In this document: piece by piece, positions 17,986 through 49,651 of the stretch
Position numbering within the stretch: position 1 is the first letter of the stretch
Layout of the letters: each line of letters starts with the position of its first letter
Assembly (NCBI GenBank): GCA_021413445.1
Contig: JAIOQI010000021.1
Coordinates: 47,871-111,870 of the forward strand
Origin: Alphaproteobacteria bacterium
Lineage (GTDB): Bacteria > Pseudomonadota > Alphaproteobacteria > Micavibrionales > UBA2020
Length of the DNA stretch: 64,000 nt
Direction of reading: 5' to 3'
Position numbers and translations under genes: made by a program
Notes under the pieces: generated by a model
Database searches by the model: none
The model's input: only the letters and a program-made list of their open reading frames with translations
What the model was told of the DNA's origin: nothing

Positions 17986-18007
17986 TTTAGTGGTTATTAC
18001 GTCATTG

Positions 18008-18901: not shown

Positions 18902-18938
18902 TCTCCTTAAAGGTTTTGTGCATTTATCAGACCCGCAA

Positions 18939-18967
18939 GAAGTAGATCAAAGCAAAGCTTATGTCAA
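18939..18967 (-). promoter_or_regulatory. Candidate sigma-70 promoter for the SPFH gene
   Basis: The minus strand reads TTGACA (18967-18962), then 17 nt, then TACTTC. The -10 element is weak. Confidence 0.3.
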
Positions 18968-19037
18968 TATAGCCTTATCATAATGATTCCATTGTGCTTT
19001 TTGCTTTTAACGATAAAAAGCGATACAACTGTTAGCC

Positions 19038-19979: not shown

Positions 19980-20563
19980 AAACCGCAACGGTATTTGCGG
20001 ATAATTTTATCTCGAATCGAGCGCAGCGTCACCGGCGACGCGACCCATCTGAGGTTCAGCCTGTCAGGGATCGCATAGTGGTTGAAAACTTCCGTCAATT
20101 TTATGAATTCCGACGTTTTTTCCATTTCCCACGCCCGGTGCGGCTGGGTGGCGCTGGAAATAAACCCCTGAATATCCTCGATATTAAACGCACTCGCTAC
20201 CCCCATGATCGCATGAAACAGCGTGTCGGTATCTTGGGGATCATGGAGAACTTTATTCAGTTCCGGATTATAAGCGGTCAGGAGATGCCAAACCCCGGCC
20301 AGTCTTTCCTGCTGCTCCGCCACCGTCAGGCTTTCCTTCCGCCAGGACAAAAGGGCGTAATTTTGCAGGTCACGCGGGGAGAGCCCCTCCGGCAGGCGGT
20401 ACCGCTGTGAAACTCCGGTCAGGCTGTATTTCTTTTCAAAGTCCACGGGAGGCTGGCAGAAATCCCGGTCCGGAATTTCTCCAAAAACAGCTTCATGCTC
20501 ATCCCGCCACTGTTTCAGGCAGGCTGTGATCCCAGCCAAGGTGTCGCGCGTCATGTCATCCAT
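19976..20563 (-). CDS. Hypothetical protein (195 aa), no recognisable domain
   Basis: This is an intact ORF in a gene-dense context. It is convergent with hemC, with a 4 nt overlap of the gene ends. No motif was recognised. Confidence 0.45.
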   Translation of the reverse strand: MDDMTRDTLAGITACLKQWRDEHEAVFGEIPDRDFCQPPVDFEKKYSLTGVSQRYRLPEGLSPRDLQNYALLSWRKESLTVAEQQERLAGVWHLLTAYNPELNKVLHDPQDTDTLFHAIMGVASAFNIEDIQGFISSATQPHRAWEMEKTSEFIKLTEVFNHYAIPDRLNLRWVASPVTLRSIRDKIIRKYRCGF

Positions 20564-20708
20564 GTCTGCTTTCTACAAAATGTTTATGAAAAAAACAAGC
20601 TTTTAAAAAATAAGAACCATTTTCTCTATATTATTCAAGCAACTAATCACCCTTGCCCTGCGGGCGAAACGCGGGTGATAATAGGCAGCGTAGGGAGATT
20701 CAGAAATC

Positions 20709-22811: not shown

Positions 22812-22835
22812 GGCTTTCATTGGCGCCATCAGCCG

Positions 22836-24212
22836 TTACTGGTTCATGACACGGAAGAATTCATCGTTGTTCTTGGTGTCCTTCAGCTTATCGAGCAGGA
22901 ATTCCATCGCATCGACGGTGCCCATCGGCGACAGAATGCGGCGCAGCATCCACATCTTGTGCAGGACATCCTTATCGACCAGCAATTCTTCTTGCCGCGT
23001 GCCGGATTTCTGGATGTCGCTCGCCGGGAAGACGCGCTTGTCGGAAATCTTGCGGTCGAGGACGATTTCGCTGTTGCCGGTACCCTTGAATTCTTCGAAG
23101 ATTACCTCGTCCATCCGGCTGCCGGTGTCGATCAGCGCCGTTGAAATGATGGTCAGTGATCCGCCTTCCTCGACGTTGCGGGCGGCGCCGAAAAAGCGCT
23201 TCGGGCGCTGCAGCGCGTTGGCATCGACGCCGCCGGTCAGGACCTTGCCGGAAGACGGGACGACGGTGTTGTAGGCCCGCGCCAGGCGGGTGATGGAATC
23301 AAGCAGGATCACCACATCGCGTTTGTGCTCGACCAGGCGCTTGGCTTTTTCCAGCACCATTTCCGCCACCTGGACGTGGCGCGATGCCGGCTCGTCGAAG
23401 GTGGAGCTGATGACTTCGCCCTTCACGGAACGGTCCATATCCGTCACTTCCTCGGGGCGCTCGTCGATCAGGAGCACAATCAGGTAGGCGTCCGGGTGGT
23501 TGGCCTCGATGGAATGGGCGATGTTCTGCATGATGACGGTCTTGCCGGTGCGCGGCTGCGCCACGATCAGGGCGCGCTGGCCGAAGCCGATCGGCGCCAC
23601 CAGCTCGATCACCCGCTGGATGTTGGCTTTCTTGGTCGGGTTGTCCAGCTCCAGCTTGATCTTGCGGGAAGGATAAAGCGGGGTCAGGTTGTCGAAGTTG
23701 ATGCGGTGCTTGATATTTTCCGGGTTCTCGAAGTTGATGGTGTTGACCTTCAGCAGGGCGAAGTAACGCTCGGTATCCTTGGGCGAGCGGATCTCCCCTT
23801 CGACGGTGTCGCCGGTGCGCAGGCCGAAGCGCTTGATCTGGCTGGGGGAGACGTAAATATCGTCGGGGCCGGGCAAGTAGTTCTCTTCCGGCGAACGCAG
23901 AAAGCCGAAGCCGTCCTGCAGCACTTCCAGCACGCCGGAGCCGACAATCGGGATGTCCTGCTCGGCCAGGCGCTTCAGGAGCGCGAACATTATTTCCTGC
24001 TTGCGCATGGTGGAACAGTTTTCGACGCCGATGTTCTCGGCGTAGGCCAGAAGCTCGGCCGGCGACTTGTCCTTCAGCTCGGTCAGGTTCATGGCCTTGC
24101 CGTCGGTGCTGCGCGTGGAGGCTTCCGCCTCCATCAGTTCGGCTTCGGAGGGGCCTTCGGGGATATTGGTGCCGCTGCTGGAACCTGTCTGGCGCGGGGG
24201 GCGTTTATTCAC
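22836..24212 (-). CDS. rho: Transcription termination factor Rho (canonical core begins at MNLTELKDK; the about 41-residue N-terminal extension is uncertain)
   Basis: It contains [14 protein letters not shown], the P-loop PRTGKT, and the C-terminal [27 protein letters not shown]. Confidence 0.95.
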
Positions 24213-24357
24213 GGGTGTTCTTCTTTCGTGGAAATGGGTTGGGGGGATATAAGATGCTTGAAACAGATCGAGGGGTGGGGGGTGTTTTATAAATATGTCC
24301 TGGCGCGTTCACGGAAACAGGCTGCCCTGCCTTCCCTTCGCAAACCGGATTGCTTTG

Positions 24358-24386
24358 ATTAAACCCCATAACGCGATGTATGTCAA
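24358..24386 (-). promoter_or_regulatory. Candidate sigma-70 promoter for rho
   Basis: The minus strand reads TTGACA (24386-24381), then 17 nt, then TTTAAT (24363-24358). This leaves a leader of about 140 nt before the first rho ATG. Confidence 0.4.
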
Positions 24387-24409
24387 CTCGTTTTAGACGG
24401 TCTCTTATA

Positions 24410-24440
24410 GAAAAAACCGGCAGAGGCCGCCCTCTGCCGG
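24410..24440 (-). terminator. Rho-independent terminator downstream of the 74-codon ORF
   Basis: A perfect 10 bp stem CCGGCAGAGG / CCTCTGCCGG with loop CCGC. On the minus strand it is followed by TTTTTTC. Confidence 0.6.
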
Positions 24441-24455
24441 TGAATGGTTTTTCCC

Positions 24456-24680
24456 CTAAAGTCCAAGCACCTTCCGGGCGTAGTTTTTCTGCCGCTCGGT
24501 CGTGGTTTTTTTGGCCGCAAACTCAAAAGCCTTGACGACTTTGGAAACAGTCAGTCCCTTCCTTTGAAATTCGGAAGCCGGAATAATGTCGATAAGCCGG
24601 TTGCCTTCCACAACAGAATAAGCGTCGTTGTTGCAGATGGAGCCTCTGTGGCCCTCGATAAAATATACGTTGATGGTCAT
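24456..24680 (-). CDS. Small hypothetical protein (74 aa)
   Basis: The ORF is bracketed by its own candidate promoter (24883-24911) and a strong terminator (24410-24440). AAAAGGAAAAAAGACC precedes the ATG. No family was recognised. Confidence 0.45.
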   Translation of the reverse strand: MTINVYFIEGHRGSICNNDAYSVVEGNRLIDIIPASEFQRKGLTVSKVVKAFEFAAKKTTTERQKNYARKVLGL

Positions 24681-24882
24681 GGTCTTTTTTCCTTTTAAAA
24701 TAAAGCGTTGGGTGTTTATTGCGTGGGAGGCGCGGATAAAAAACGCGGCATCCTCTTCGGGGGCAGAAATTCCTATAAGGGGGTTCTTAGGCTCTGCCCG
24801 CCAACATTCGCATGCGGGGCATCATGGTGCGCCCGTTTAAAAAAGATACTGAGTACTGCTGCGAATCGGTTTTCATATCTCT

Positions 24883-24911
24883 AATATATAAAAACCACAG
24901 CTCTTCGTCAA
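24883..24911 (-). promoter_or_regulatory. Candidate sigma-70 promoter upstream of a long leader and the 74-codon ORF
   Basis: The minus strand reads TTGACG (24911-24906), then 17 nt, then TATATT (24888-24883). Confidence 0.35.
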
Positions 24912-24938
24912 TATTTTAATACGAAAAACATCAGCCTC

Positions 24939-25388
24939 TCAAAACGGCTTCACGATCACCATGATGACGATCACGATCATCAGGACCGTCGGTATCTCAT
25001 TCGCCTTGCGGTAAAACGCCGCCGAATGATGGTTTTTGTCTTTCAGGAAAGCCTTGCGCCACCGCGACAGGAAGGCGTGGAATATCTGCATCAGGACAAG
25101 CGCCCCCAGTTTTACATGCATCCACCCCCCCGACGACAGGAGGCCGGGATTGGCGGCGAGCATCGCCAGCCCAAACCCCCAGGACAGGATCATCGCCGGA
25201 TTGATAATGATGCGCAAAAGTTTCCTTTCCATGATTTTAAGCGTTTCAGAAAGCTCCGAACCTTTGTCAGCGCCGGTATGATAAACGTAAAGCCGTGGCA
25301 GATATAACATCCCCGCCATCCAGGACATCACCGCGATGAGGTGAAGGGCTTTAAACCAGTCATAATGGGATAAAATAAAATCAGTCAT
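24939..25388 (-). CDS. hemJ: Protoporphyrinogen IX oxidase HemJ-type membrane protein (149 aa)
   Basis: MTDFILSHYDWFKALHLIAVMSWMAGMLYLPRLYVYH... with four TM segments is typical of the HemJ family. The ATG at 25388 overlaps the hemH stop. The longer 311-codon track ORF is an artefactual upstream extension through hemH. Confidence 0.8.
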   Translation of the reverse strand: MTDFILSHYDWFKALHLIAVMSWMAGMLYLPRLYVYHTGADKGSELSETLKIMERKLLRIIINPAMILSWGFGLAMLAANPGLLSSGGWMHVKLGALVLMQIFHAFLSRWRKAFLKDKNHHSAAFYRKANEIPTVLMIVIVIMVIVKPF

Positions 25389-26406
25389 TTTTCGCTCCTT
25401 TGTAACATTTGTTGAAACGGCCCGGGCAGGTTCTTTCGCTCGTCGCGGGAGCGTACAAAACCAGATCCCGCAAGCCCTCGATAAATTGGGGATGAGCGCC
25501 AACCGTGGGCACCCGCGCAAAATAAGGGATGCCCATTTCCTGCGCGCGCTGGCGATATTCAATGTCGATTTCCACCAGTGTTTCGACATGCTCCGATACA
25601 AAGGCGCAGGGATAGACAACAACCCCCGTCCTGTCCGCCGCCGCTTTTTGCAAAGCCTCCCCGATGGAGGGGCCGATCCACGGCAGCCGCCCGACCCGGC
25701 TCTGGTAGCAGAGCCGGCAATCCAGCCCCGGAATATCCAGTTGCCGGACAATCGCCGCTGCCGTTTGCTCGCACTGGTGCTGGTAGGGATCGCCGCGCCT
25801 GATGACTCTTTCCGGAAGGCCGTGCGCGGAAAGCAACAGCCGCGTTTTTTGCGGCGCTTTCCGCAAGGCCGCACGGATTAATTCCACGGAGGCGGTGATA
25901 AATCCCGCATTAAGAGGGTAACAGCAGATCTCCGTTGTTGGCAGCTCCAGCCCGAGCTTTTTTGCCGCCTGCTGCCAGTTCTGCAATGATGAAAAGCTGG
26001 TGGTGGTGGAAAACTGCGGATAAAGCGGCAACAGGACGATTTTGTCCGGCCGGAAAGCGGCGACCTCCTGAACCGTCTGTTCCGCCAGAGGATGCCAGTA
26101 GCGCATTGAAACAAAAACCCGCGCGCCGGGAGATTTTTCCTGCAAGGCCCGCTCCAGCGCCTCTGCCTGGGCGATGGTATTGGCCAGCAGCGGCGATGCC
26201 CCGCCCAGATGCCCGTAAGATTTTTTCGCCGCGCCGCCGCCGCGCCGCCATGAAATCCATTTTGCCAGGCCATAGCGCAGCGGCTGTGGCAGCGGAATGA
26301 TATTTTTATCCATGAAAAAATTGAACAGGAAGGGTTTGATGGCGGCCGCCGAAGAAGGCCCGCCCAGATTCAACAGCACCACGGCCAGCTTTTGCGTTGA
26401 CGGCAT
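25381..26406 (-). CDS. hemH: Ferrochelatase HemH
   Basis: VLLNLGGP, YPQFSTTT, SAHGLP and AFVSEHVETLVEID are typical ferrochelatase blocks. Confidence 0.9.
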   Translation of the reverse strand: MPSTQKLAVVLLNLGGPSSAAAIKPFLFNFFMDKNIIPLPQPLRYGLAKWISWRRGGGAAKKSYGHLGGASPLLANTIAQAEALERALQEKSPGARVFVSMRYWHPLAEQTVQEVAAFRPDKIVLLPLYPQFSTTTSFSSLQNWQQAAKKLGLELPTTEICCYPLNAGFITASVELIRAALRKAPQKTRLLLSAHGLPERVIRRGDPYQHQCEQTAAAIVRQLDIPGLDCRLCYQSRVGRLPWIGPSIGEALQKAAADRTGVVVYPCAFVSEHVETLVEIDIEYRQRAQEMGIPYFARVPTVGAHPQFIEGLRDLVLYAPATSERTCPGRFNKCYKGAKND

Positions 26407-27479
26407 TATCTTTGGTGCGTCTTGATGATTTTTGCCAGCTGCTCGATATGCTCCAGCGGCGTTTCCTTGATCACGCCGTGCCCCAGGTTGAAAATGAAGG
26501 GCGCGTTTTCGGCCGACTTCAGGATATAATGCAGGGCGCTTTCCAGCGGTTTTCCTCCAATCAGAAGCAAGACCGGGTCGAGGTTGCCCTGCAGGGCAAC
26601 TTTGCGGCCGAAGCTGTGCACCGCCTCTTTCAACGGGAAATACTGGTCAAGGCCGACGCAGCTCACCCCTGATTTTTCGGCATACGGCTGATAAAGCTGC
26701 CCGGCGCGGCGCGGGAAGCCGATCACGGGGAATTTGGGAAAAACCTTATGAATGTTGTCGACGATCTTGCGGGTGGGCGCGATCACCCAGCGCTCGAAAT
26801 AATGATCGGGCAGCAAACCCGCCCAGCTGTCGAAGATCTGCACCGTGTCCGCGCCATGCCGGATCTGCTCGATCAGGTAGCGCGACGTCGCCTCGACCAG
26901 AGTGTTGATGAGTTTATCAAAGCCGGAAGGGTTGCCGAAGGCGAATTTTTTGACTGCGGTGAATTCATTGTCGCCATGCCCTTGTATCATGTAACAGGCC
27001 ACCGTCCAGGGCGCGCCGGCAAAGCCGATCAGGGCTTTGTCCGGCTCCAGGGCTTCGCGGACGCGGCTGACGGTTTCATAGACCGGCTGAAGTTTTTTAT
27101 CAAAAGCGCCGATGTCAAAGTCATGAAAATCCTTCAGGCCCGGAAAGGGGCCAAGGCGCGGCCCCTCCCCCTCGGCAAAATCGAGCTTTTGCCCGAGGGC
27201 GTAAGGGATCACCAGGATGTCCGAAAAAAGAATCGCCGCATCCATGTCAAAACGCCGGAGGGGCTGCAGCGTCACTTCGGCGGCCAGTTCGGGACTGAAG
27301 CAAAGGTCGAGGAAAGACCCGGCCTTTTTGCGCAGCTCGCGGTACTCGGGCAAATAACGTCCGGCCTGCCGCATCAGCCAGAACGGCACGTAAGGCGTGG
27401 CTTCCCCTGCCAGGGCGCGCAGCAGCAGTTTTTCTTCCGGCAGCTTTTCTGATGGCATGTTCACTTTAATCTTCCTCAC
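26406..27479 (-). CDS. hemE: Uroporphyrinogen decarboxylase HemE (start may be the ATG at 27458)
   Basis: PFWLMRQAGRYLPEY, LFSDILV and the C-terminal FNLGHGV are HemE signatures. Confidence 0.9.
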   Translation of the reverse strand: MRKIKVNMPSEKLPEEKLLLRALAGEATPYVPFWLMRQAGRYLPEYRELRKKAGSFLDLCFSPELAAEVTLQPLRRFDMDAAILFSDILVIPYALGQKLDFAEGEGPRLGPFPGLKDFHDFDIGAFDKKLQPVYETVSRVREALEPDKALIGFAGAPWTVACYMIQGHGDNEFTAVKKFAFGNPSGFDKLINTLVEATSRYLIEQIRHGADTVQIFDSWAGLLPDHYFERWVIAPTRKIVDNIHKVFPKFPVIGFPRRAGQLYQPYAEKSGVSCVGLDQYFPLKEAVHSFGRKVALQGNLDPVLLLIGGKPLESALHYILKSAENAPFIFNLGHGVIKETPLEHIEQLAKIIKTHQR

Positions 27480-27959
27480 GGCAAGCGTCAGACGAAGATG
27501 CCAGCTTTCCCCCTGAAGTAAAAGAGAAACCCCTCTATCCTTAATAGATATATATAAGAAAGTAGTAGTAGATTGTAGGGCGGTGGACTACGGGGATGAA
27601 AACCAATGTACAGAGTTAACCACACCCCCCTGCCGCGGATTTGGCCAGAGGCTTTGAATAACTTTTGTATGTAGCGCCGGATTTGGCCGGGAGTCTGGTT
27701 TTTCCAGGCGGTGTGAATTGCGGGGATAAACGCTTTTCTGTCAAATATAGTTATCCACACTTCGAATATCCAGAGTCCGTCTCGGCATGAGGCCGGTATC
27801 CTCTTGTTCCGACTCGTGGATTATCCTCCGGTTTTTTTTACACACCTGTTTGTACGCAGGGTTATCTGCCAAGTTATCCACCAGTGGCCGGGGGGCCCGG
27901 TTGCTTTTCATTTTTTTTCCGATAGGATGAAAAGCAGGCCATCAAGGGGTTGGGTTGAT
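27480..27959. other. Candidate chromosomal replication origin (oriC), hemE-adjacent
   Basis: This is a 480 bp non-coding gap next to hemE. It holds one perfect DnaA box TTATCCACA (27751-27759) and two one-mismatch boxes, TTAACCACA (27616-27624) and TTATCCACC (27874-27882). Weaker boxes lie at 27821-27829 and on the minus strand at 27721-27729. There is an AT-rich tract at 27541-27575. Dominant gene orientation switches here, from mostly minus to the left to mostly plus to the right. Confidence 0.6.
27751..27759 (+). promoter_or_regulatory. Perfect consensus DnaA box
   Basis: An exact match to TTATCCACA inside the hemE-proximal intergenic region. Confidence 0.6.
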
Positions 27960-28568
27960 ATGAGCGAAGACTGGAAAAAGCTGGACGTTGAAGGCGCGGC
28001 GCGGGCGTTGAGCGAGATCAATCCGCAGCTGGAACCCATTCCTTTCAGTTCGGACACCACGACGATACGGACCATGAAACTCCCCTTTTACCGGGACTAT
28101 TTGCTCTATGAGCTGACGGACCTTTCCGCCGTTCCCGGCGCGCGCAAATACGCGCTTTACAAGCCGGGCGACGTACATGTGATTAACTGGACCAACCAGC
28201 CGATTTATGAAGTGAACGAAAAAGCGCCCGTGATGCTGAAAGAGAGCACGGTCGTTGATTACGTCAAGTTTTTCTTTGGCTACGTGCGCGGCCGCCATGG
28301 ACGCTTCACCATCATTGAAACGATCGATGACATCCGCTGGCAGATCGACCCCCCGGCGCAGGGCCGCAAGGTGATGCAGGAAATGCTCGAGCCGGTGACC
28401 CTGACCGACCTGGAGCCGGACGGCACCTTTAACCTCGAAGCCTTCATGCTTTTCAAAGATTCCCTATTCAAGACCCAGGTGCATGTCAAAAAGGACGGGC
28501 TGGTCAGCATGTCCAGCGAAGAGCTGAAGATCGAGGGCATGCCGATCTTGCAGGATGTCGCGGTCTAG
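27960..28568 (+). CDS. Conserved-looking hypothetical protein on the origin flank (about 202 aa)
   Basis: I chose the ATG at 27960 (MSEDWKKLDVEG...). The track ORF start at 27804 would run through the DnaA-box region. No domain was recognised. Confidence 0.5.
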   Translation: MSEDWKKLDVEGAARALSEINPQLEPIPFSSDTTTIRTMKLPFYRDYLLYELTDLSAVPGARKYALYKPGDVHVINWTNQPIYEVNEKAPVMLKESTVVDYVKFFFGYVRGRHGRFTIIETIDDIRWQIDPPAQGRKVMQEMLEPVTLTDLEPDGTFNLEAFMLFKDSLFKTQVHVKKDGLVSMSSEELKIEGMPILQDVAV

Positions 28569-31125: not shown

Positions 31126-32160
31126 ATGACCAATGACATCGATCGTGATGGCGAGCCTTTAGTCAAGAAACCAAAAACGACGGGGTTTAAAGACACCTCG
31201 AAGCGGCTGCGGCGCGGCAAGGAAAACCATATCGCGCACCGCGCCAGCCTGGACTGGCGCCAGGACCGCGACCGGGTTTGCACCCCGTTTGGCGACGTCG
31301 TTGATTATGTCGATCTTGCCGAATTGAAAGCTGTCGTCATAAAATCCGGCACCGGCGAGGCGCTTTTGTGCGGGGACAGCGCCAGAGGTTTAAATGTCTA
31401 TTATGATTCACAGGTGCCGGTGTCGCAGTTTTACCCGCGGGACAAGGAATGTTTCATCACCCTTAACCCGCACCACACCAAAGGCGAGCTTCTCAATATG
31501 CTGGTGCGCGAACTGCGCCGCGCCTGGCAGTATTATCAGGGTGCCTTGATCAATCCGATGCGTTTTGAGCCGGACGAGGCCATATTGGTCAACCGCGCCC
31601 AGCAGGCTGACGTGCTGATGGCATCGGTCAAGGTAGCCTGGGAGCTGAAGCTGGCGGGCGAGGCGGAAGCCTGGAATTTTATGGCCGGGTCGCCGATGGC
31701 GGATGTGACGCGCGTGTTTGAAATTCATGCCCAGAAAGATTTCCGCACACTGAACAACGGCGAAGCTTCCCGCGCGGCCTACGACAAATTTTTCGAGGAG
31801 AAGCGCACCAAGGCGCATGACAAGCGGATCATCCACCAGATGCTTCTGGATGACCTGGGATACATGAAGGCGCCGCAGAAATTTCCCAAGGTCGGCATGG
31901 ACCTGTTCAGAAAACTGGGCGAGATGCCGTACGGGCGCAACTATCTGTCGATCAGCAGCAAAAAACCGCCGACGGACACGTGCTATTCCACGATCGAGGA
32001 CCGCTCCAACGCCAATTTCCTGTGGTTCATCAAGTTTGAGCGCAGCTTCCAGGAAAAAGAGCAGGAGATGCTGCAGGAATCGGCCAAGGCTTCGGCGAAC
32101 GTCGTTGATTTCACCCGCTGGTCTTCGCAGGCGCGGCGCCAGCAGGGGCCGGGAACCTAG
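31126..32160 (+). CDS. Hypothetical protein, paralogue of the HExxH protein at 42309-43274 but with a degenerate motif (RELRR)
   Basis: A strong RBS GAAGGAGG precedes the ATG. It shares the block I.L.P....L..LV.ELR..WQY.Q......NR...AD with the 42309 gene, but the histidines are replaced (LVRELRRAWQYYQ). Confidence 0.6.
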   Translation: MTNDIDRDGEPLVKKPKTTGFKDTSKRLRRGKENHIAHRASLDWRQDRDRVCTPFGDVVDYVDLAELKAVVIKSGTGEALLCGDSARGLNVYYDSQVPVSQFYPRDKECFITLNPHHTKGELLNMLVRELRRAWQYYQGALINPMRFEPDEAILVNRAQQADVLMASVKVAWELKLAGEAEAWNFMAGSPMADVTRVFEIHAQKDFRTLNNGEASRAAYDKFFEEKRTKAHDKRIIHQMLLDDLGYMKAPQKFPKVGMDLFRKLGEMPYGRNYLSISSKKPPTDTCYSTIEDRSNANFLWFIKFERSFQEKEQEMLQESAKASANVVDFTRWSSQARRQQGPGT

Positions 32161-33172: not shown

Positions 33173-33817
33173 TTACGGCTGCGCATCCAGCAGATTCCCC
33201 TCGTTTTTTTTGTCAAGCCATTCGCGGGCCAGTTGCAGCGCGCGGTCGCGGCGGGTGAGTTGGGTGGTCACGTTGTCACGGTCCTCGATGGCGCGTTTCT
33301 TTTCCGCCCCGTCCGGATAATGCGCGATGGCGATGTGCAGCCACATCAGCGCCTTGACCGCATCCGCCTGAACCCCCTCTCCCGTATAGTAAATAATCCC
33401 CAGGTGATGTTGCGCCAGCGGCCGGTTGGCGTCAGCTGCCTTGTTCAGCCAGAGCAGGGCCTGCTCGGGATCTTTCTGCACGCCCTGGCCGTTCCTGTAC
33501 ATGATGCCGATCAGTTCTTCCGCCTGATCCTGGCCGTTTTTCGCCAGCGGGAGAAGGCGTTTTGCAGCGATGTCGAATTTTCCCTGTTGATAAGCGGTAA
33601 CCAGATCTTCAATGGTCATGAGACCCGACGGATCTTCCTCGGCTTTATTCTCAGGCAGCGCCATGTCCTGTTCTTCCGGCGGGGGGGAGCCGGTTTCCGG
33701 CATCAGGAGGCCGGGCTTGATATTGCTGTATTCATCCAGCGACGGGGCGCTGTCTTCGGCTTGCGCGGAAAGAACGGAGATCATCAGCAGAACGAAAACA
33801 GCGGATAAAAAACGCAT
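33173..33817 (-). CDS. Secreted Sel1-repeat (TPR-like) protein
   Basis: It has a signal peptide MRFLSAVFVLLMISVLSAQA. It also has repeated Sel1-type units (AEELIGIMYRNGQGVQKDPEQALLWLNKAA, LAQHHLGIIYYTGEGVQADAVKALMWLHIA). Confidence 0.8.
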   Translation of the reverse strand: MRFLSAVFVLLMISVLSAQAEDSAPSLDEYSNIKPGLLMPETGSPPPEEQDMALPENKAEEDPSGLMTIEDLVTAYQQGKFDIAAKRLLPLAKNGQDQAEELIGIMYRNGQGVQKDPEQALLWLNKAADANRPLAQHHLGIIYYTGEGVQADAVKALMWLHIAIAHYPDGAEKKRAIEDRDNVTTQLTRRDRALQLAREWLDKKNEGNLLDAQP

Positions 33818-37845: not shown

Positions 37846-39723
37846 ATGAAGAAATTTGATGTCATAGTGATTGGCGGCGGACATGCGGGCTGCGAGGCGG
37901 CGGCCGCGGCGGCGCGCATGGGCGCGCAAACCCTGCTGTTGACACATCGAATCGATTCCATCGGCGTCATGTCCTGCAATCCCGCCATCGGCGGTTTGGG
38001 CAAGGGGCATCTGGTGCGCGAGATAGATGCGCTGGACGGCGTGATGGGGCGCGTGATTGACCGCTCCGGCATCCAGTTCAGGATCCTGAATGCCAGCAAA
38101 GGCCCCGCTGTGCGTGGGCCGCGGGCCCAGGCCGACCGCAGGCTCTATCGCGAGAACATGCAGCAAATATTGCTCAATTATCCCAACCTGGAAATTTTCG
38201 CGGACGGCGCGGAAGAAATCCTGCGCGATGCGGCGGGCCATATCAGCGGCATTAAAACCACCGCTGGTCACGTGTTTTCCTGCGCCGCGCTGGTGGTGAC
38301 CACCGGCACTTTTTTGCGTGGGATCATTCATCGCGGCGCCCTTCAGCAGCCGGCGGGGCGGGTGGGGGAAAAACCTTCCGTTGGCCTGGCGCTCAGCCTT
38401 GAGAAATTGAATCTGCCGCTGGGGCGCCTGAAAACCGGCACCCCGGCCCGGCTGGACGGGCGCACCATCAACTGGTCCATCCTTGAAGAGCAGGCCGGCG
38501 ATACGCCGCCCACTCCCTTCTCTTTTATGACAAACAAAATCACCGTGCCGCAGATCAGCTGCCATATCACTTATACCAATGAAAAAACCCATCAGATTAT
38601 CCGCGATAACCTGCATGTGGCGCCGATGTATTCGGGGCAGATAAAATCCTCCGGGCCGCGTTATTGCCCGTCGATTGAAGACAAGGTGGTGCGCTTCGCC
38701 GACAAAACGCGCCATCAGGTGTTTTTGGAGCCGGAAGGGCTCGACGACCATACCGTTTATCCGAACGGCATTTCCACCTCGCTTCCTGAAGAGGTGCAGC
38801 AGGCCATGATCGAGACCATCCCCGGCCTTGAAAAGGCCACGATCTTGCAAGCGGGCTATGCGGTGGAATACGACTATATCGATCCCCGCGCCCTGAAGCA
38901 TACCCTGGAAATCAAGACCGTCCCGGGATTGTTCCTGGCCGGGCAGATCAACGGTACGACAGGCTATGAAGAAGCGGCGGCGCAAGGGTTGATCGCCGGC
39001 ATCAACGCCGCCCTGCGCGCCGGCAGCGGCGATAGCCAGACCTTTGTGCTCGACCGCGCTGACGGTTATATCGGCGTCATGATTGATGATTTGGTCACGC
39101 AGGGCGTTTCCGAGCCTTACCGGATGTTCACCTCGCGCGCCGAATACCGCCTGCTGTTGCGCGCCGATAATGCCGACCAGCGCCTGACCCCGGCGGGGAT
39201 TTCGATCGGCTGCGTCGGTGCGGAGCGCGCCGGCGCTTTTGAGGCGAAGCACCTTTCCCTGAACAGCCTCCGCGAACAGATACAAGCCCTGACCGCACTG
39301 CCCATCGAATTGGAGCGGGCAGGGTTCAAGATCAACCAGGACGGCGTGCGCCGCACCGCCCATGACATGATGCGCTATCCGGAAATCAATTTTGAGGTGC
39401 TGAAGAAATTCTGGCCGGAGCTGGCTTCCGTGCCTGCCGACATTGCCGAACAGATTGAAATCGACGCCCGCTACGCCGGCTATATTCAGCGTCAAGAGGC
39501 TGATATTAAAGCCTTTCGCCGCGATGAGGCGCTCTTGATTCCGGCGGACCTGGACTACAATATGATCGGCTGTCTCTCCAACGAGATGCGGCTGAAATTG
39601 TCAAAATTCCGTCCCGAAACGTTGGGCGCGGCGGGGCGTATCCCCGGCGGCACGCCGGCGGCCATGGTGGCGCTGTTGCGTTACATCAAGCGTAAATCCA
39701 AGACAGAGAAAAAAGTTGCCTGA
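37846..39723 (+). CDS. mnmG: tRNA uridine 5-carboxymethylaminomethyl modification enzyme MnmG (GidA)
   Basis: [38 protein letters not shown] and [16 protein letters not shown] are typical of MnmG. Confidence 0.95.
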
Positions 39724-40339
39724 TTTTATCCACTATCCTTTTGAAAAATACGGCCTCGACGTTTCACGTGAAACACGCGAGAAGTTTAACCGCTATGCGG
39801 AAATTTTACTGAAGTGGCAAAATGCCATCAATCTTGTCAGCGAAGCCACGCTGGAAGATATGGTGAAAAGGCACTTTCTGGATTCCGCGCAGCTGATGAA
39901 ATATATCCCCAATAAAAACATCAAACTGGCGGATCTGGGCTCTGGCGCCGGGTTTCCGGGCCTGGTGCTGGCGATGCTGGGCGTTGCAGAAGTGCATTTA
40001 ATTGAATCGGATGTGCGCAAGGCGACTTTTTTGCGCGAGGTTTCACGTGAAACCTCTGTAAAAACATTTATTCACGACGACAGGATTGAAGAGACAAAAA
40101 TCGACAATCTGGATTTTATCACCGCCCGCGCCCTGGCGCCCCTGAAAGACCTGTTGGTGATGGCAGCTGGTCTTTCCACACCCGGCCACCCGGCGACATG
40201 TCTGTTTATGAAGGGCGAAAAAACGGAAGAGGAGCTTGCTAAGGCTCAGAAAAAGTGGGGTTTTTCTCTCGAGGTCCACCAAAGTGTTACGGAACAATCC
40301 GGAAAAATATTAAAAATCAACAACTTAAGTAAAAAATAA
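39716..40339 (+). CDS. rsmG: 16S rRNA (guanine527-N7)-methyltransferase RsmG (GidB)
   Basis: It has [10 protein letters not shown], the SAM motif [16 protein letters not shown], and ITARALA. Confidence 0.9.
39760..39775. promoter_or_regulatory. parS centromere-like site 1 (inside rsmG)
   Basis: cGTTTCACGTGAAACa has the perfect 14 bp palindromic core of the parS consensus TGTTTCACGTGAAACA. Confidence 0.75.
40039..40054. promoter_or_regulatory. parS centromere-like site 2 (inside rsmG)
   Basis: gGTTTCACGTGAAACc has the perfect 14 bp core. Confidence 0.75.
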
Positions 40340-40367: not shown

Positions 40368-40383
40368 AGTTTCACGTGAAACA
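40368..40383. promoter_or_regulatory. parS centromere-like site 3 (rsmG-parA intergenic)
   Basis: aGTTTCACGTGAAACa matches 15 of 16 positions of the consensus and lies in an AT-rich spacer upstream of parA. Confidence 0.8.
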
Positions 40384-40445
40384 TAATGTTTATATTTATA
40401 AATAGACCTTGATTGTTACGTTCTATCCGGGCTATTAAATGGATT

Positions 40446-41306
40446 ATGAATCAGGTTTTGCCGAAAAACAGCCTTCTTCCTGTCTCCCAAGGCGGGAATA
40501 TCCGCCCCGCCGCGACACGCTATATCAGCGTTTCCAACCAAAAGGGCGGCGTCGGAAAAACAACCACAACCATCAATCTTTCCACGGCTTTAGCGGCGAC
40601 CGGCAAAAAAGTTCTGGTGATTGATCTGGACCCGCAGGGCAATGCCTCCACCGGCCTGGGCGTTGACCGCTCCAGCCGCCTGAATGACAGTTATGGGGTG
40701 CTTTTCGGGGAATGCGACATCGACCAGGCGGCCGTGCCGACCAAGGTGCCCAATCTTTTTGTTATCCCAGCCTCTATCCACCTTTCCGGCGCGGAAATCG
40801 AGCTGGTCGATGCCAAGCAGCGGGAATTTCGCCTGAAAACGGCGCTGGAAAAGAGTGAAACGCAGTATGATTATGTCATGTTCGACTGCCCACCATCTCT
40901 TAACCTATTGACTTTAAACGCTTTAGTGGCATCAACCGGAGTCCTGGTTCCTTTGCAGTGCGAGTTTTTTGCGCTGGAAGGATTGAGCCATCTCGTCAAC
41001 ACGATCGAACGTGTCAGGGGTAGTTTTAACCCGCACCTGGAACTGATGGGGGTTGTCCTGACGATGTATGACAAAAGAAACAACCTGTCAAATCAGGTGG
41101 CGGAGAATGTCCGGGCCCATTTCGGGGATAAAGTCTATGAAGCGGTTATTCCCCGCAATGTGCGCATTTCCGAGGCGCCATCTTTCGGCCTGCCGGCGAT
41201 CGTCTATGACATGAAGTGCAACGGCTCGCAGGCTTATATCCAGCTCGCCAAGGAAATACTGAAGCGCGAAAAAAATACGCAAGTGAAGTACGGCGCCGCG
41301 GTTTAA
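40446..41306 (+). CDS. parA: Chromosome partitioning ATPase ParA
   Basis: It has the deviant Walker A SNQKGGVGKTTT, and DCPPSL. I chose the ATG at 40446 over the TTG at 40413. Confidence 0.9.
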   Translation: MNQVLPKNSLLPVSQGGNIRPAATRYISVSNQKGGVGKTTTTINLSTALAATGKKVLVIDLDPQGNASTGLGVDRSSRLNDSYGVLFGECDIDQAAVPTKVPNLFVIPASIHLSGAEIELVDAKQREFRLKTALEKSETQYDYVMFDCPPSLNLLTLNALVASTGVLVPLQCEFFALEGLSHLVNTIERVRGSFNPHLELMGVVLTMYDKRNNLSNQVAENVRAHFGDKVYEAVIPRNVRISEAPSFGLPAIVYDMKCNGSQAYIQLAKEILKREKNTQVKYGAAV

Positions 41307-41324: not shown

Positions 41325-42293
41325 ATGACATCTGATACAAAGCCATCTGATATAAAAAAGCGCGGTCTTGGCCGCGGCCTGGACGCCCTTTTCCAGGACG
41401 CCCGCAACGAAGAGGCGGCTTTCGCGCCGAAGATAAAGCGCGCCGACGAAATCGTCTCGAAAAAAGCGCCGCCGCAGCAGCCGGCATCCTCCGCCCCGCT
41501 GAAGGTCGCCATCGACAAGCTCAGGCCGGGAAAGTTCCAGCCGCGCCGCCGTTTTGACGAGGCGTCCATCAATAGCCTTGCCGAATCCATCGCCGTGCAC
41601 GGCGTTTTGCAGCCTTTGCTGGTGCGCAAGCTGTCCGCCAACGCTTATGAAATTATCGCCGGCGAGCGCCGCTGGCGCGCAGCGCAAAAAGCCCAGGTGC
41701 ACGAGCTGCCGGTGCTGGTGCTTGACCTGAACGACAACGACGCGCTGGAAATCGCGCTGATCGAGAATTTACAGCGCGAGGATATTTCCGCCATCGAGGA
41801 GGCCGAAGGCTACCAGCGCCTGATCGACGAATTCCACCATACGCAGGAAGTGCTGGCGCACCGTCTCGGCAAAAGCCGCAGCCACGTCACGAACATGCTG
41901 CGCCTGCTCAGGCTGCCGAACAAGGTCCGGCAATATATACAGGACGGGACCTTAAGCGCCGGCCATGCCCGGGCCCTGGTCGGGTGCAGCAACGCCGACG
42001 AGATCGCTGCCGCGATCGTGAAGCGCGGCCTTAGCGTGCGTCAGACGGAAAGCCTGGTCAAGAAAGCGGCGACCGGCAAGGCGCCGGGCAAAAAAATCCC
42101 GAAAAAATCGGCGAAAATCATCATCATGAAAGACGTGGATGTTTTGGCGCTGGAGGGGAAAATGTCTTCCCTGCTCGGCATGAAGGTGGCGATCGAGGGC
42201 GTTGGCTCCTCAGGCGCTTTGTGCATCGAGTATAAATCCCTGGAACAGCTGGACGACCTCCTGGAGAGGCTGTCCCGCACGCCGGGAAAATAA
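41325..42293 (+). CDS. parB: Chromosome partitioning protein ParB
   Basis: It contains GLGRGLDALF, QPRRRFDE, the GERRWRAA box and an HTH region (QEVLAHRLGKSRSHVTNMLRLLRLP). Confidence 0.9.
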   Translation: MTSDTKPSDIKKRGLGRGLDALFQDARNEEAAFAPKIKRADEIVSKKAPPQQPASSAPLKVAIDKLRPGKFQPRRRFDEASINSLAESIAVHGVLQPLLVRKLSANAYEIIAGERRWRAAQKAQVHELPVLVLDLNDNDALEIALIENLQREDISAIEEAEGYQRLIDEFHHTQEVLAHRLGKSRSHVTNMLRLLRLPNKVRQYIQDGTLSAGHARALVGCSNADEIAAAIVKRGLSVRQTESLVKKAATGKAPGKKIPKKSAKIIIMKDVDVLALEGKMSSLLGMKVAIEGVGSSGALCIEYKSLEQLDDLLERLSRTPGK

Positions 42294-42308
42294 TTGCGGG
42301 GGAGCGTT

Positions 42309-43274
42309 GTGAATTTTTTCACCAAATTAAAAAAACGCCTGCAATGGGCGCGGACGCCGGATCAGGAAAAACAGCAGCTGCTGGAGAAAGCCGTCACGCT
42401 GCTGCATTTCGACCCCGACGCGCTGGAACTGTTCAGGATGGCGCAGGCAGACGGCGTTGAAATCAAGTTTTCATCGGGGCTGACCGGTTCCCGGACGGCG
42501 GCGCGGCATGTCCTGAATTTCAACAAGAAGAAGCAATATATAGAAATCTGCCCTTACACGGGGTCCGGCAGGCTGAAAACCCCGGTGATGATCGCGTCCG
42601 ATCTTGTGCACGAGCTGCGCCACTACTGGCAATACAAGCAGTTGGGGGTCACGCCGCAGAACGGAAACCACATCAACAGAAACCCCCGCCTGTCTTTTGT
42701 CTTTAACCGGGTGGCCGAAGCGGATGCTTACGCTTTTCAGGATAAATTCATCAAAACCATGAATGAAACTTCAGATGTTTTTTCGGAGTTTTTGAAGGAG
42801 ATTCCCGCCCCGACGCCCCTGCAGGCGCACCAGATTAACTATGAAGCCAATAAAAAATTTCAAAAATTGCGGGCGAATGACGCGCAGTATCTGCGCGAGC
42901 GGTTTGTCGAGATGCTCAAAAAAGGGGTTCTTTCCCAAAGTTATGACCCGCAGGAGGCGCGCTACCTGCATCTCCGGCACACGTCCTCCCTCGCCGAAAA
43001 AACCGATTTTGACGCTGTAAAACACATTCCGGAACTGACGCTGGCCGATATCAAGAAGGTGTTAAAAGCGGGTGTGGTGAAAAACGCCCCCGGCTATCTC
43101 GGCGACATGAGCGACGACCAGTTCGAAGACCTGGTGCTGGGCAATGCGCACCGCGGCGCATTGGAAGCCGTCAACCTGATGGAAAAATTCAGCAGGGCCG
43201 TGGCCGGCAACGACAACAAAACGGCGAAAGAGCTGCGCCGCCAGGTGAAAGAAAAAATCCATAAACTGAAATAG
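42309..43274 (+). CDS. Hypothetical protein with an HExxH zinc-metallopeptidase-type motif
   Basis: The GTG at 42309 is preceded by GGGGGAG. The motif DLVHELRHYWQYKQ contains HELRH. It is paralogous to the 31126-32160 product, starts 15 nt after the parB stop, and is on the same strand. Confidence 0.6.
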   Translation: MNFFTKLKKRLQWARTPDQEKQQLLEKAVTLLHFDPDALELFRMAQADGVEIKFSSGLTGSRTAARHVLNFNKKKQYIEICPYTGSGRLKTPVMIASDLVHELRHYWQYKQLGVTPQNGNHINRNPRLSFVFNRVAEADAYAFQDKFIKTMNETSDVFSEFLKEIPAPTPLQAHQINYEANKKFQKLRANDAQYLRERFVEMLKKGVLSQSYDPQEARYLHLRHTSSLAEKTDFDAVKHIPELTLADIKKVLKAGVVKNAPGYLGDMSDDQFEDLVLGNAHRGALEAVNLMEKFSRAVAGNDNKTAKELRRQVKEKIHKLK

Positions 43275-43275
43275 C

Positions 43276-44325
43276 CTAAGCCCGGCGCCTGACGCCGGCG
43301 GCCTTGGCCCCGGTCTGCGACAGGGACAGGACGGCGCGGCTGCAGAGCGTGTGCGGGTCGTTGGCGGTCTGCTTGCATTTGGCCTCGACGCCGGAGAGCA
43401 GCGCCAGCGCCTGTTCCATCTGGTTCAGGCTCCAGGTGGAAAGCTGGGATTCAAAAGCGGATTTGACCTTGAAAAACAGGGGCGGACGCAGTTTTTTCAA
43501 GGCCCCCTCCATGCTTTCGCCCTGTTGCAGGCGGGCCTTGCTGATATGCAGGCGCAGGAAATAATTTTGCAGGTTGCGCAGGATGCTGACGGCGGGAATC
43601 CCCTCCGACAGCACATGATCGAGGATTCTTTCCGCCGCGGCAAACTGGCCGGAGGCGACATGCCGGGCGAGGTCGTCCAGAGACAGGGCGGCGCTGTTGC
43701 CGACGCAGGCAACGACGTCGTCGAGTGAAATCGATTTCTGACCCGCGCTCATATAAGTGATAAGTTTTTCAACTTCCGACCGCGCCACGGCGCGGTCGCC
43801 GACGACATTGCCCGCCATATAGGCAATCGCTTCGGAGGGAATGGTATAACCGGCGGTTTTCAGCGAATCCCCGATGACGCGGCCGATGTCGCGCTCGTCC
43901 TCGATATAGCAGGGGATGGCCGCGCCGTTTTCGGCGTTTTCGAACAAAAGCCGCAGCGACGAGCGCGGCGACAGCTCGCCCGCGCCCAGCAAAACCAGGT
44001 TGTCCGCGGGCCTCAGCGCGGCCAGGACGCCTTTGACGACCGTGGTCATGTCATCGCCCGCGCCCTGCACCCGCACCACCCGCCGTCCGCCCAGCATCGA
44101 GATGGACAGGGCCTCGTCCATCAGCCGCGCCGGATTCTCGGACAACTGCTTGGCGGACAATTCCACGACGTTGAAGGGATCGCGGATGTCAGAGACAATA
44201 TTTCCAGTCAGGAGGTTCATCCGCTCGCGGATCAATCCTTCGTCCGGCCCGTAGAGCAGCAGCGCTGCCATTGCCGGCGGCGGCTTTTTGACGAAGCTCT
44301 CGATATTTTTCGGGGCGATTTTCAC
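43276..44325 (-). CDS. holA: DNA polymerase III delta subunit HolA
   Basis: 349 aa. The N-terminus reads LLYGPDEGLIRE and the overall layout resembles HolA. Its position downstream of leuS-lptE supports the call. Confidence 0.85.
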   Translation of the reverse strand: MKIAPKNIESFVKKPPPAMAALLLYGPDEGLIRERMNLLTGNIVSDIRDPFNVVELSAKQLSENPARLMDEALSISMLGGRRVVRVQGAGDDMTTVVKGVLAALRPADNLVLLGAGELSPRSSLRLLFENAENGAAIPCYIEDERDIGRVIGDSLKTAGYTIPSEAIAYMAGNVVGDRAVARSEVEKLITYMSAGQKSISLDDVVACVGNSAALSLDDLARHVASGQFAAAERILDHVLSEGIPAVSILRNLQNYFLRLHISKARLQQGESMEGALKKLRPPLFFKVKSAFESQLSTWSLNQMEQALALLSGVEAKCKQTANDPHTLCSRAVLSLSQTGAKAAGVRRRA

Positions 44326-44832
44326 GGCGCGGCCAGCGCTTCCCCGCCGCGGCGGAAATAGAGGTTCAACTCGGTAATGGCGTCATCGCCGAGCCGCTGG
44401 ATAAGGTTCTCGGTGACGTTTTGCTGGGATACCAGCGTTGCCAGTTGGTTGTCCAGCAGGTTGTGGGAACCGGCGGCCTTGAGCTGGCGCTGCAGAAGGA
44501 CGGCGCCGGTGTTTTTTTCCACCAGCTGCATTTTGGTGGAGATTTGTATCTGGGAGATGGTGGCGGTGGCGTTTTTTTCGATGCCGATGTTATTGGTGTT
44601 TTTCTCCAGCGGGGAGAAGGTTAGCCGATAAAGCGCCTCTGCCGGACGGCCGTGCGTATAGAGCCGGTCGATCAGCAGGTTGCGCAGCGCCTGGCCTTCC
44701 CGGTCGGGAATGTTGCTGATTTCGATTTCCGGCCTGGCCGGGGCAGGCTGGTTTTTTTGCGCATAGAGGGATTCGAAGCCGCAGCCGGAAAGCCCCGCGG
44801 TCAGAAACAGGCAGGAACAGAGGATAAGGGCC

Positions 44833-44846
<14 letters not shown>
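44322..44846 (-). CDS. lptE: LPS-assembly lipoprotein LptE
   Basis: It has the lipobox [10 protein letters not shown] and is about 174 aa. It lies in the conserved leuS-lptE-holA order. I chose the ATG at 44846. Confidence 0.7.
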
Positions 44847-47364
<2,518 letters not shown>

Positions 47365-47393
47365 TTTACTCATCCACATCATTCCGGCGAAGG

Positions 47394-47948
47394 TCAGTTT
47401 TGTTTCAACCCCAATTGCACGACGCGCATCTCGCGGGCGCGGGTCAGGACGGTGTTTTCAATGGAGTTTGCCATATCATCCGTAACCTCGGTGTCCTGCC
47501 ACCCGGCCTTGTTTTTTTTCTGTTTGAAGACGGAAACCCGCAGGCCGTCGGCGCGCAGCTGTTTGTCCAATATATAGAGGTTGATTTTGAAGCGCTCGCC
47601 CCGGGCTTTGGGGTTTTCATACCAGTCGGTCAGGATAACGCCGCCGAAGGGATCGGCGGAGAGCACAGGCATGAAGGAAACAGTATCCAGCGAGGCCCGC
47701 CACAAAAAGCTGTTGACGCCGATGCCGGCGCCCCCGCCGCTGTTATTTTCTTCATCTTTGCCAAAGAGCTTGTCGCTGAGCGTGTCATCCCCTCCCCAGA
47801 CCGTTTCGCGTTTCTGGTCGCTATAAAGGATTTTGTCGGTGCCTTCCGGCCGGGTTGGATAGCTGGCTTCCTTGACAAGGGGGCCGGCACAGCCGGTCAG
47901 GAGGACGGCGATCAACAAGATCGGGAGTAAACAGGGTGGGCGCAACAT
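47394..47948 (-). CDS. Lipoprotein (DUF3576-like), conserved upstream of leuS in alphaproteobacteria
   Basis: The ATG at 47948 gives [23 protein letters not shown], which has a lipobox. It also has the WRASLDT..FMP...ADPFGG.I.TDWY block that I associate with this family. Confidence 0.6.
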
Positions 47949-48060
47949 CAGATCCCTCTTCAATAAAGTTATATGTGTCTCACTGTGATTAGCACGATCA
48001 TGCCTGTTTATAAAGACTATATATATGAGAGCCGGGCCTAAACTCCTATCATCTTCTCCC

Positions 48061-48087
48061 GCCATTCCGGCGAAAGCCGGAATCTGA
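48061..48087. repeat. Palindromic GAAA-loop element (REP/MITE-like), copy related to those at 49720 and 49800
   Basis: GCCATTCCGGCGAAAGCCGGAATCTGA has the stem TTCCGGC/GCCGGAA around GAAA. It has the same architecture as the 49.7 kb copies. Confidence 0.4.
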
Positions 48088-48352: not shown

Positions 48353-49651
48353 ATGAAAAAACTTTTACTCGTAAGCACGGCGATCGCTGGTGTGGCGCTT
48401 CTGTCGTCTCCCGCTTCTGCTGCCGTTAAAATGGATCTCGGCGGCTTCTTCCGTGGTTACGGCGTGTATGCCGATAACAATGAAGATACCGGCGCATCCA
48501 ACTCGCTGTACAACTTTGAATTCCGCCGCGATGCCGAGCTGCATGCCAATGGCGAAACCACGCTCGACAACGGCCTGACCGTCGGCGCGCACGGCGAACT
48601 GAAAATCGCCAACGGTTCCAATTCGACCCTGTCGGATGAAATCTACGGTTATCTTTCCGGCGGCTGGGGCCGTATCAACCTCGGCATTGAAGACGGCGCA
48701 GCCTACCTCCTGCAGGTAGCCGCTCCTTCCGCTGATTCCAACGTGGATGGCCTGCGCACCTATATCCAGGCGCTCAACCCGAAAAGCACTGCGATGGATT
48801 CCAACCTCGCGTCGCTGACCGCCAACAGCAATGCTTTCTTCGGCCTCCTGGATTACGATCAGGGTGATTTCGCGAAGAACGACCGCATCACCTACCTGAC
48901 GCCGAAGTTTGACGGCTTCCAGGCCGGCGTTTCCTATGCGCCGAAACAAGGCGTTACCAGCAATACAGGCAGCATGGCTTTTGACCAGGATGGCCAGGGT
49001 TTCTACAATCCGGGTGGAACATCCATCACGGCTGATTACCAAAACCTTTGGGAAGTTTCCGCCCGTTATGACGGCGAATTCGAAGGCTTCGGTTTTGCCC
49101 TCGGCGGCGGTTATAGCGATTCTGGCATTGAATCCACGCCATCCGCAGCTCAGCTGACCGACGATGCCGGCGGTGACACTTTCAACGACGGGGATTACTT
49201 CCTCGACGACGGTATCCAGTCCTATAACGGCGGCCTGACCCTTTCTTCACAGGGCTTCAGCCTCGGCGGCGCTTACAAGCAGACCAAAACATCGCGCATC
49301 ACCAATACTGACAACGGTGGTACGGACAATGCCCAGTCGGGTGACATTACCGCCAAGACCTGGGTTATCGGTGCGGGCTATGATAACGGCCCCTGGCATG
49401 CCGGGGCGAGCTACCTGAACACCAAAACGGAACTTGATGCCATCATCAACGGTCTGGATTCCGGTAACATTGCTGCAACCTCTTACGAAGATGACAAGTA
49501 CACGGTCGGCGGTGGTTACACCTTCGGTCCCGGTATGACCTTCCGCGGCGCTGTGGCCTGGGGTACGTTTGATAACGCAACCGCTGGCACACTCACCACG
49601 GATGACAACGATTTCACGCAAGTTACCGTTGGTGCGGACGTACAGTTCTAA
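48353..49651 (+). CDS. Outer-membrane porin (beta-barrel)
   Basis: It has a signal peptide MKKLLLVSTAIAGVALLSSPASA, alternating Gly/Tyr/Asp-rich beta-strand pattern, and a C-terminal VGADVQF ending in Phe. Confidence 0.8.
   Translation: MKKLLLVSTAIAGVALLSSPASAAVKMDLGGFFRGYGVYADNNEDTGASNSLYNFEFRRDAELHANGETTLDNGLTVGAHGELKIANGSNSTLSDEIYGYLSGGWGRINLGIEDGAAYLLQVAAPSADSNVDGLRTYIQALNPKSTAMDSNLASLTANSNAFFGLLDYDQGDFAKNDRITYLTPKFDGFQAGVSYAPKQGVTSNTGSMAFDQDGQGFYNPGGTSITADYQNLWEVSARYDGEFEGFGFALGGGYSDSGIESTPSAAQLTDDAGGDTFNDGDYFLDDGIQSYNGGLTLSSQGFSLGGAYKQTKTSRITNTDNGGTDNAQSGDITAKTWVIGAGYDNGPWHAGASYLNTKTELDAIINGLDSGNIAATSYEDDKYTVGGGYTFGPGMTFRGAVAWGTFDNATAGTLTTDDNDFTQVTVGADVQF

Follow-up and report, generated by a model that had tools for sequence, protein, structure and literature searches.

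A putative DUF6782-family zincin-like metallopeptidase encoded directly after parB in an uncultured alphaproteobacterial lineage

The stretch of DNA analysed here, 64,000 nucleotides (nt) of an alphaproteobacterial genome and referred to below as the window, contains a parAB cluster that is followed on the same strand by an open reading frame (ORF) of 321 codons (42309..43274, + strand). This ORF was identified as a DUF6782-family zincin-like gene from its reading frame, its Pfam match, its ratio of nonsynonymous to synonymous substitution rates (dN/dS) and its NCBI entry. The explanation that we favour, with a probability of roughly 0.55, is that the product is a two-domain, soluble, cytoplasmic DUF6782 metalloenzyme performing site-specific cleavage, encoded by the last cistron after parB and linked to parB by inheritance. 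The reading of the product as a putative peptidase is reasonably supported, and its role in partition is only a hypothesis.

Catalytic motif and family assignment

An HExxH motif had been noted in the product by an earlier sequence-only reading of this DNA, and it was found as HELRH at residues 101-105 (42609..42623, + strand), within residues 98-111 (DLVHELRHYWQYKQ), the codon of H101 being 42609-42611. H101 and H105 are two putative metal ligands and E102 is the putative catalytic Glu. For a protein of this composition, the expected number of HExxH motifs by chance is 0.024. A profile search run exhaustively over 1.84 billion representatives returned 352 relatives at E<=1e-3, about 55 of them aligning over the full length. 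Conservation was read from an alignment of 108 sequences, most of which share 20-30% identity with the query, and from a full-length alignment of 56 sequences. HELRH was present in almost every one of 150 family representatives, and H101, E102, H105, Q108, E137 and A140 were invariant in the 108 sequences, with L103, R104, R134 and D139 nearly invariant. E137 (42717-42719) lies in a second conserved block, NRVAEADA (42705..42728, + strand), and is the candidate third metal ligand by its conservation and by its place on a predicted helix (residues 126-164). In the C-terminal half of the protein, F199 and Y212 were invariant in the 56 full-length sequences and nearly so in the 108, and D213, Y263, F294 and A297 were nearly invariant.

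R104 (42618-42620) fills the second x of HExxH and, alongside R134 and Q108, is nearly invariant in the whole family. We take an Arg at this position to be atypical for proven zincins, and to be excluded by PROSITE PS00142, which is a caveat to the peptidase reading.

The product had also been described as having no recognisable domain, and this has to be corrected. It matched Pfam PF20573 (DUF6782, 'putative metallopeptidase family') with 32.7 bits against a gathering cut-off of 27 (E 5.9e-8), the match covering amino acids (aa) 20-154 of the product and positions 26-144 of the 241 in the profile, not the whole profile. DUF6782 was matched by 55 of the 56 subfamily members, and the motifs HELRHxWQ and NRxxEADA are common to the product and to DUF6782. 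Unlike these shared elements, the C-terminal domain of the product marks a separate subfamily of about 55 representatives at 50% identity. No paper mentioning DUF6782 or PF20573 was found in the literature library that was searched. DUF6782 is a catalogued but unstudied family, and the ORF product is a new subfamily-level member of it.

No domain fusions were seen, the ten longer relatives carrying no other Pfam domain. Searches with tblastn, using either the ORF or a canonical DUF6782 protein, found no plasmid or phage relatives. PADLOC gave no match for the ORF, its sole weak match being CARF_HEPN (E 0.019) in the relative P0150. An origin from a mobile element or a defence system was thus rejected for lack of support.

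Predicted fold and comparison with known HExxH families

Two AlphaFold2 models were made, one of the full-length product (predicted local distance difference test, pLDDT, 89.9; predicted template modelling score, pTM, 0.88) and one of the N-domain alone with a deeper alignment (pLDDT 96.2, pTM 0.90). Both contain, in order, three N-terminal helices, a three-stranded sheet (residues 51-54, 65-70 and 75-80), a helix at 92-111 and a helix at 126-164. HELRH lies on helix 92-111, after the sheet, and the invariant E137 lies on the long helix 126-164, the next after the active-site helix. As modelled, this order of sheet, HExxH helix and Glu helix is gluzincin-like, in a minimal form. Two confident models place HELRH in a metallopeptidase-like active-site helix, as the metallopeptidase-type reading proposed from sequence had implied; together with the candidate third ligand E137 and weak sequence and structural matches to zincins, they support that reading. 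The predicted N-terminal catalytic domain comprises aa 1-165 (42309..42803, + strand), as delimited by the models, by the Pfam match and by an hhalign alignment (aa 24-147). It is followed by an all-helical C-terminal domain at aa 170-321 (42816..43271, + strand; helical at 170-319 in the models), for which neither hhalign nor Pfam gave a match to the canonical DUF6782 C-terminus.

Structural neighbours were distant. Foldseek gave no significant match in the PDB (best E 0.26), and its top matches, Wss1, the ChlB HExxH domain, PPEP-1 and MMP-11, all have zincin-type folds. Against predicted viral structures (BFVD) the best E was 5e-4, and the named neighbours were 'IrrE N-terminal-like', 'SprT-like' and 'WLM' proteins. 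Among the 56 subfamily members, weak secondary Pfam matches were to Peptidase_M78 (16 members), DUF3920 (15), SprT-like (9), M91 (5) and Tox-MPTase4 (2).

The family was compared with two groups to which these weak matches point. The EADAxAF motif of the product resembles what we take to be the EANxFA motif of COG2856. Like the IrrE/ImmA proteins (COG2856, Peptidase_M78), the product has a small cytoplasmic catalytic domain with HExxH and a downstream Glu; M78 matched weakly in 16 of the 56 members, and IrrE-like phage proteins were among the best structural neighbours. In contrast, the window protein had no PF06114 match at E<=10 (cut-off 22 bits), and the matches of relatives stayed below threshold, with a best E of 1.6e-4 among the 56 members and listed scores of 16.5 and 20.0 bits for two relatives. 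IrrE itself was absent among the PDB structural matches. COG2856/XRE pairs are defined by an adjacent XRE-family repressor (PMC6868357), whereas the neighbours of the ORF are ParB and HolA, with no adjacent XRE-family repressor. With sub-threshold scores and no such repressor, membership in Peptidase_M78/COG2856 was rejected.

The DNA-protein-crosslink proteases of the SprT-like/Wss1/WLM group are also basic proteins with minimal zincin folds; Wss1 was the top PDB neighbour, and 9 of the 56 subfamily members gave weak SprT-like matches. The best PF10263 score was 22 bits (relative P0013) against a cut-off of 25.6, and the window protein gave none. SprT-like and Wss1 families use a third His after HExxH. 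In the ORF family the candidate is instead Glu137, and no conserved His follows H105 in either the 56- or the 108-sequence alignment. Membership in the SprT-like group was therefore rejected on both the scores and the missing third His.

The gene and its junction with parB

The parB stop codon (TAA) is at 42291-42293, and the 15-nt spacer from it to the next ORF reads ttgcgggggagcgtt. A GTG codon at 42309, 15 nt (ttgcGGGGGAGcgtt) past parB, opens the 321-codon frame, which ends on the + strand with TAG at 43272-43274. A Shine-Dalgarno-like GGGGGAG (42298..42304, + strand) lies 4 nt 5' of the GTG. The ORF, its distance from parB and its Shine-Dalgarno sequence, all read directly from the DNA, are as first reported. 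The GTG start was accepted because orthologues begin with MNFF and because NCBI holds an identical 321-aa protein, 'hypothetical protein K8R48_03220 [Alphaproteobacteria bacterium]'. In a comparison with the 79%-identical orthologue of lineage L001, dN/dS was 0.108 with no sign of positive selection, which indicates a real gene under purifying selection.

The product is a basic protein of 36.9 kDa (isoelectric point, pI, 9.5) with a Lys/Arg-rich C-terminal tail (pI 10.6). No hydrophobic N-terminus, signal peptide or transmembrane segment was found by Kyte-Doolittle analysis (maximum 19-residue mean 0.67), in line with the earlier statement that a signal peptide is absent, and the product looks cytoplasmic.

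Consensus scanning found no terminator-like or promoter-like site on the + strand from parA to the ORF stop, and the 15-nt gap is too short to hold either element. Given this gap, the Shine-Dalgarno sequence and the lack of a terminator-like site on the + strand, the ORF is probably co-transcribed with parB. It had been called the third gene of the parAB operon; the same-strand, short-gap position agrees with a place in the operon, but with mnmG, rsmG, parA and parB upstream it would be the fifth cistron. Downstream, only 1 nt separates the ORF's stop codon (43274) from that of the convergent holA (43276), which leaves no room for an intergenic terminator. A GC-rich hairpin at 43280-43300 was considered as a terminator after the ORF and rejected, as its folding is no more stable than that of shuffled sequence (z -0.13).

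Conservation of the position after parB

Homologues were found directly after parB in nine lineages, with gaps of 1-145 nt and ORF identities from 79% down to 27%. With a genome scan returning 6 loci and a metagenome scan 2, the synteny sample is small. These lineages are the window itself, L001/L002 (79% identity), L025 (66%), L018 (40%), L010 (38%), L003 (37-40%, two tandem copies), L004-6 (36%, followed by rpmJ-mreB instead of holA), JGI contig 3300050046 (36%, gap of 4 nt) and L022 (27%, gap of 1 nt). The expectation that parB-linked homologues occur in related genomes was thus borne out, though not universally. In L020 (30% identity) the gene lies between parB and holA, with three genes, one of them on the opposite strand, intervening after parB, and in L007, L017, L023/24 and L026 (about 29-34%) it lies elsewhere in the genome.

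In a neighbour-joining tree the parB-linked copies fell into two separate major clades, which indicates that the position is old; as judged from this tree, the position after parB is ancestral in an uncultured alphaproteobacterial lineage. In these genomes, however, the mnmG-rsmG-parAB / holA-lptE-leuS block is syntenic as a whole, so that inheritance alone can explain the parB linkage. So far, inheritance of the position together with hitch-hiking in the operon accounts for the linkage better than a role in partition does. The ORF is also the fastest-diverging gene in the block: its identity is 36-40% where that of ParB is 69-74%, HolA 75% and LptE 53%, and its dN is 0.123 against 0.038 for ParB, an about threefold faster divergence.

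No conserved downstream partner that could be a substrate, inhibitor or immunity gene was found, the neighbours in L007, L017, L019, L020, L022 and L023 being mutually unrelated and absent from the window. A literature search likewise found no paper on a metalloprotease downstream of parB.

Some variants of the locus were recorded. The insertion in L020 (2144-4866) comprises an opposite-strand gene for a 551-aa multi-pass membrane protein and small genes of 105 and 110 aa, whose N-termini look signal-peptide-like by eye, and the homologue remains beside holA. Tandem duplicates occur in L003 (4313-5218 and 5234-6088), where both copies lie between parB and holA, and in L019 (66-1028 and 1021-1464), and all of them keep HELRH.

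A ligand-less paralogue in the same window

A paralogue in the window had been reported, and it was identified by Pfam, alignment and hhalign as a full-length canonical DUF6782 protein (31126..32160, + strand). Its DUF6782 score, 90 bits over profile positions 59-240, is much better than that of the ORF product. Comparison of the two subfamilies with hhalign gave a probability of 97.8% (E 8e-13), aligning ORF residues 24-147 with paralogue residues 63-170 only. The alignment ends at ORF residue 147, and the helical C-terminal domain is thus subfamily-specific. The reported paralogy therefore stands for the catalytic domain, with two restrictions, that the homology is confined to this domain and that HExxH is lost. 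Where the ORF product has HELRH and NRVAEAD, the paralogue has RELRR and NRAQQAD (RELRR/QADV form), so that both His of HExxH are replaced by Arg and the position of the catalytic Glu is retained; the position of the third-ligand Glu is variable. This ligand-less form has 691 detectable homologues, the best 120 of them at 55-77% identity, and greatly exceeds the HExxH-bearing gene in conservation. From its sequence the paralogue looks like a conserved pseudo-peptidase.

Proposed activity and alternative explanations

In the favoured reading, a site-specific metalloenzyme linked to parB by inheritance, a metal ion, presumably zinc, would be held by H101 and H105 of the active-site helix together with E137 of the helix that follows, and E102 would activate a water molecule as general base. 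A peptide substrate may bind along the edge strand of the small sheet, and the C-terminal helical domain, in which Y212-D213 are conserved, would probably shape or close the cleft and set specificity, possibly via Y212. The gene would be translated as the last cistron of an mnmG-rsmG-parA-parB transcript. The activity would most likely consist in cutting one or a few intracellular proteins at specific sites, since the nearest folds are those of site-specific regulators (IrrE/ImmA) or DNA-linked proteases (SprT/Wss1), not of bulk peptidases.

A fast-evolving exported effector or toxin-type metallopeptidase, which happens to occupy a permissive site of insertion where two convergent operons meet, is an unlikely alternative that would account for the fastest divergence in the neighbourhood (36-40% identity against 69-74% for ParB and 75% for HolA), the tandem duplicates in L003 and L019, the several paralogues per genome, the weak matches of a few members to the Peptidase_M91 effector and Tox-MPTase4 domains and the Lys/Arg-rich tail of pI 10.6. 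An exported protein is difficult to reconcile with the absence of a signal peptide and of secretion-system genes among the scanned ORFs of the window. There is no conserved immunity-like partner downstream, no plasmid or phage match and no credible PADLOC match, and the dN/dS of 0.11 carries no sign of positive selection.

It is distinctly unlikely, by our estimate, that the product serves the chromosomal ParABS system as a dedicated accessory protease, cleaving ParB, ParA or another DNA-bound protein and thereby resetting or regulating the partition complex. Such a role would fit a gene that follows parB immediately in nine lineages of two major clades and down to 27% identity, with parB gaps as short as 1-4 nt, and that stayed with parB in L004 where the downstream genes are now rpmJ-mreB. 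The protein is basic (pI 9.5), and DNA-binding proteins are the targets of the nearest folds, IrrE/ImmA and SprT/Wss1 (PMC6868357). On the other hand, parB and the gene are not adjacent in L020, where three genes, including one of opposite orientation, lie between them and the gene remained by holA; full-length members lie elsewhere in L007, L017, L023/24 and L026; and the synteny of the whole block suffices for the linkage. The roughly threefold faster divergence than ParB and the lack of a parS site near the gene also argue against it. The more specific proposal that the DUF6782 zincin is a hitherto unrecognised third protein of chromosomal ParABS in these uncultured Alphaproteobacteria is regarded as improbable. 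In it, a protease translated with ParB would cut ParB, ParA or a DNA-trapped protein at the centromere, and the far more conserved paralogue without ligands, 10 kb away, would regulate it or act as a decoy.

A non-hydrolytic HExxH metalloenzyme was also considered, for example one of the Fe(II)/alpha-ketoglutarate-dependent hydroxylases (IPR026337) such as ChlBH, PflC or BpmH, which have a zincin-like fold. As that family shows, a zincin-like protein with HExxH is not necessarily a hydrolase (PMC12636437). The ChlB HExxH domain (8s5f) is a top PDB neighbour of the product (probability 0.84 over 100 columns, root-mean-square deviation 4.3 A), and, speculatively, R104 and R134, both nearly invariant, might serve to bind an anionic cofactor. 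Foldseek nevertheless gave an E of only 0.28 for 8s5f, and no sequence relation was found: PDB sequence searches, with the single sequence and then with a profile, returned nothing relevant and did not retrieve 8s5f, and NCBIfam gave zero matches for the product at E<=10. NCBIfam presumably contains the HEXXH-domain model TIGR04267. The neighbours are housekeeping genes, not a cluster for a peptide made on ribosomes and modified after translation (RiPP), and no RiPP precursor, radical-SAM or MNIO gene is nearby. Membership among the alpha-ketoglutarate-dependent HExxH hydroxylases was rejected on these grounds, and a non-hydrolytic enzyme of this kind is considered very improbable.

Equally little credit is given to a non-catalytic pseudo-peptidase whose binding would inhibit a partner. 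Such a role has been proposed for Rir, a COG2856 protein that keeps HExxH and for which cleavage was not detected (PMC6868357). That precedent, the atypical Arg in HExxH and the highly conserved paralogue, in which the fold persists without metal ligands, speak for it, but the strict invariance of H101, E102, H105 and E137 is hard to explain without metal-dependent chemistry, and given these ligands the reading fits the paralogue rather than the HExxH gene.

If the product is an active protease expressed together with ParA and ParB, it would provide a testable first function for the wholly unstudied DUF6782 family and could reveal proteolytic control of a chromosome-partition complex, which lies outside the ParABS models of today. 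Should the linkage prove to be one of position alone, the gain would be one of routine annotation, from 'hypothetical protein' to 'DUF6782-family zincin-like putative metallopeptidase, parB-linked subfamily'. The result also provides, within one genome, an enzyme that looks active cleanly paired with a paralogue lacking the ligands.

The partition locus and its surroundings

Upstream of the ORF, the co-directional genes on the + strand are mnmG (37846-39723), rsmG (39716-40339), parA (40413..41306), whose relatives carry the Pfam domains ParA, CbiA and AAA_31, and parB (41325..42293), with ParB_N, HTH_ParB and ParB_C. Three parS-like palindromes of the form xGTTTCACGTGAAACx, against 0.2 expected by chance, were found at 39760-39775 and 40039-40054 within rsmG and at 40368-40383 in the rsmG-parA spacer. 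On the evidence of the sequence this is a true chromosomal partition locus. The listed TTG start of parA (40413) gives an N-terminal extension absent in relatives, whose alignments begin at residues 8-35, and the true start is probably an ATG near 40446. Convergent on this cluster, on the - strand, are holA (43276..44325; DNA polymerase III delta, with a weak DNA_pol3_delta_C match), lptE (44322-44870) and leuS (44833-47382).

The cumulative GC skew has its minimum near 20-22 kb (within about 18000-28000), and this turn suggests that the replication origin is probably inside the window. Near this minimum lie hemD (20709-22811), rho (22836-24212, - strand) and hemE (26406-27479, - strand). No Rfam match was found in the window. 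Among the ORFs scanned in the rest of the window, housekeeping genes predominate (tsaD, gpsA, kdtA, PBP1, hemD, rho, hemE), and several ORFs have no Pfam match. Other genes recorded are one for a Sel1-repeat protein (33173-33817, - strand), a Porin_4 porin gene (48353-49651, + strand) and a gene for a DUF3576 protein (47394-48065, - strand), which adjoins leuS in L022 likewise.

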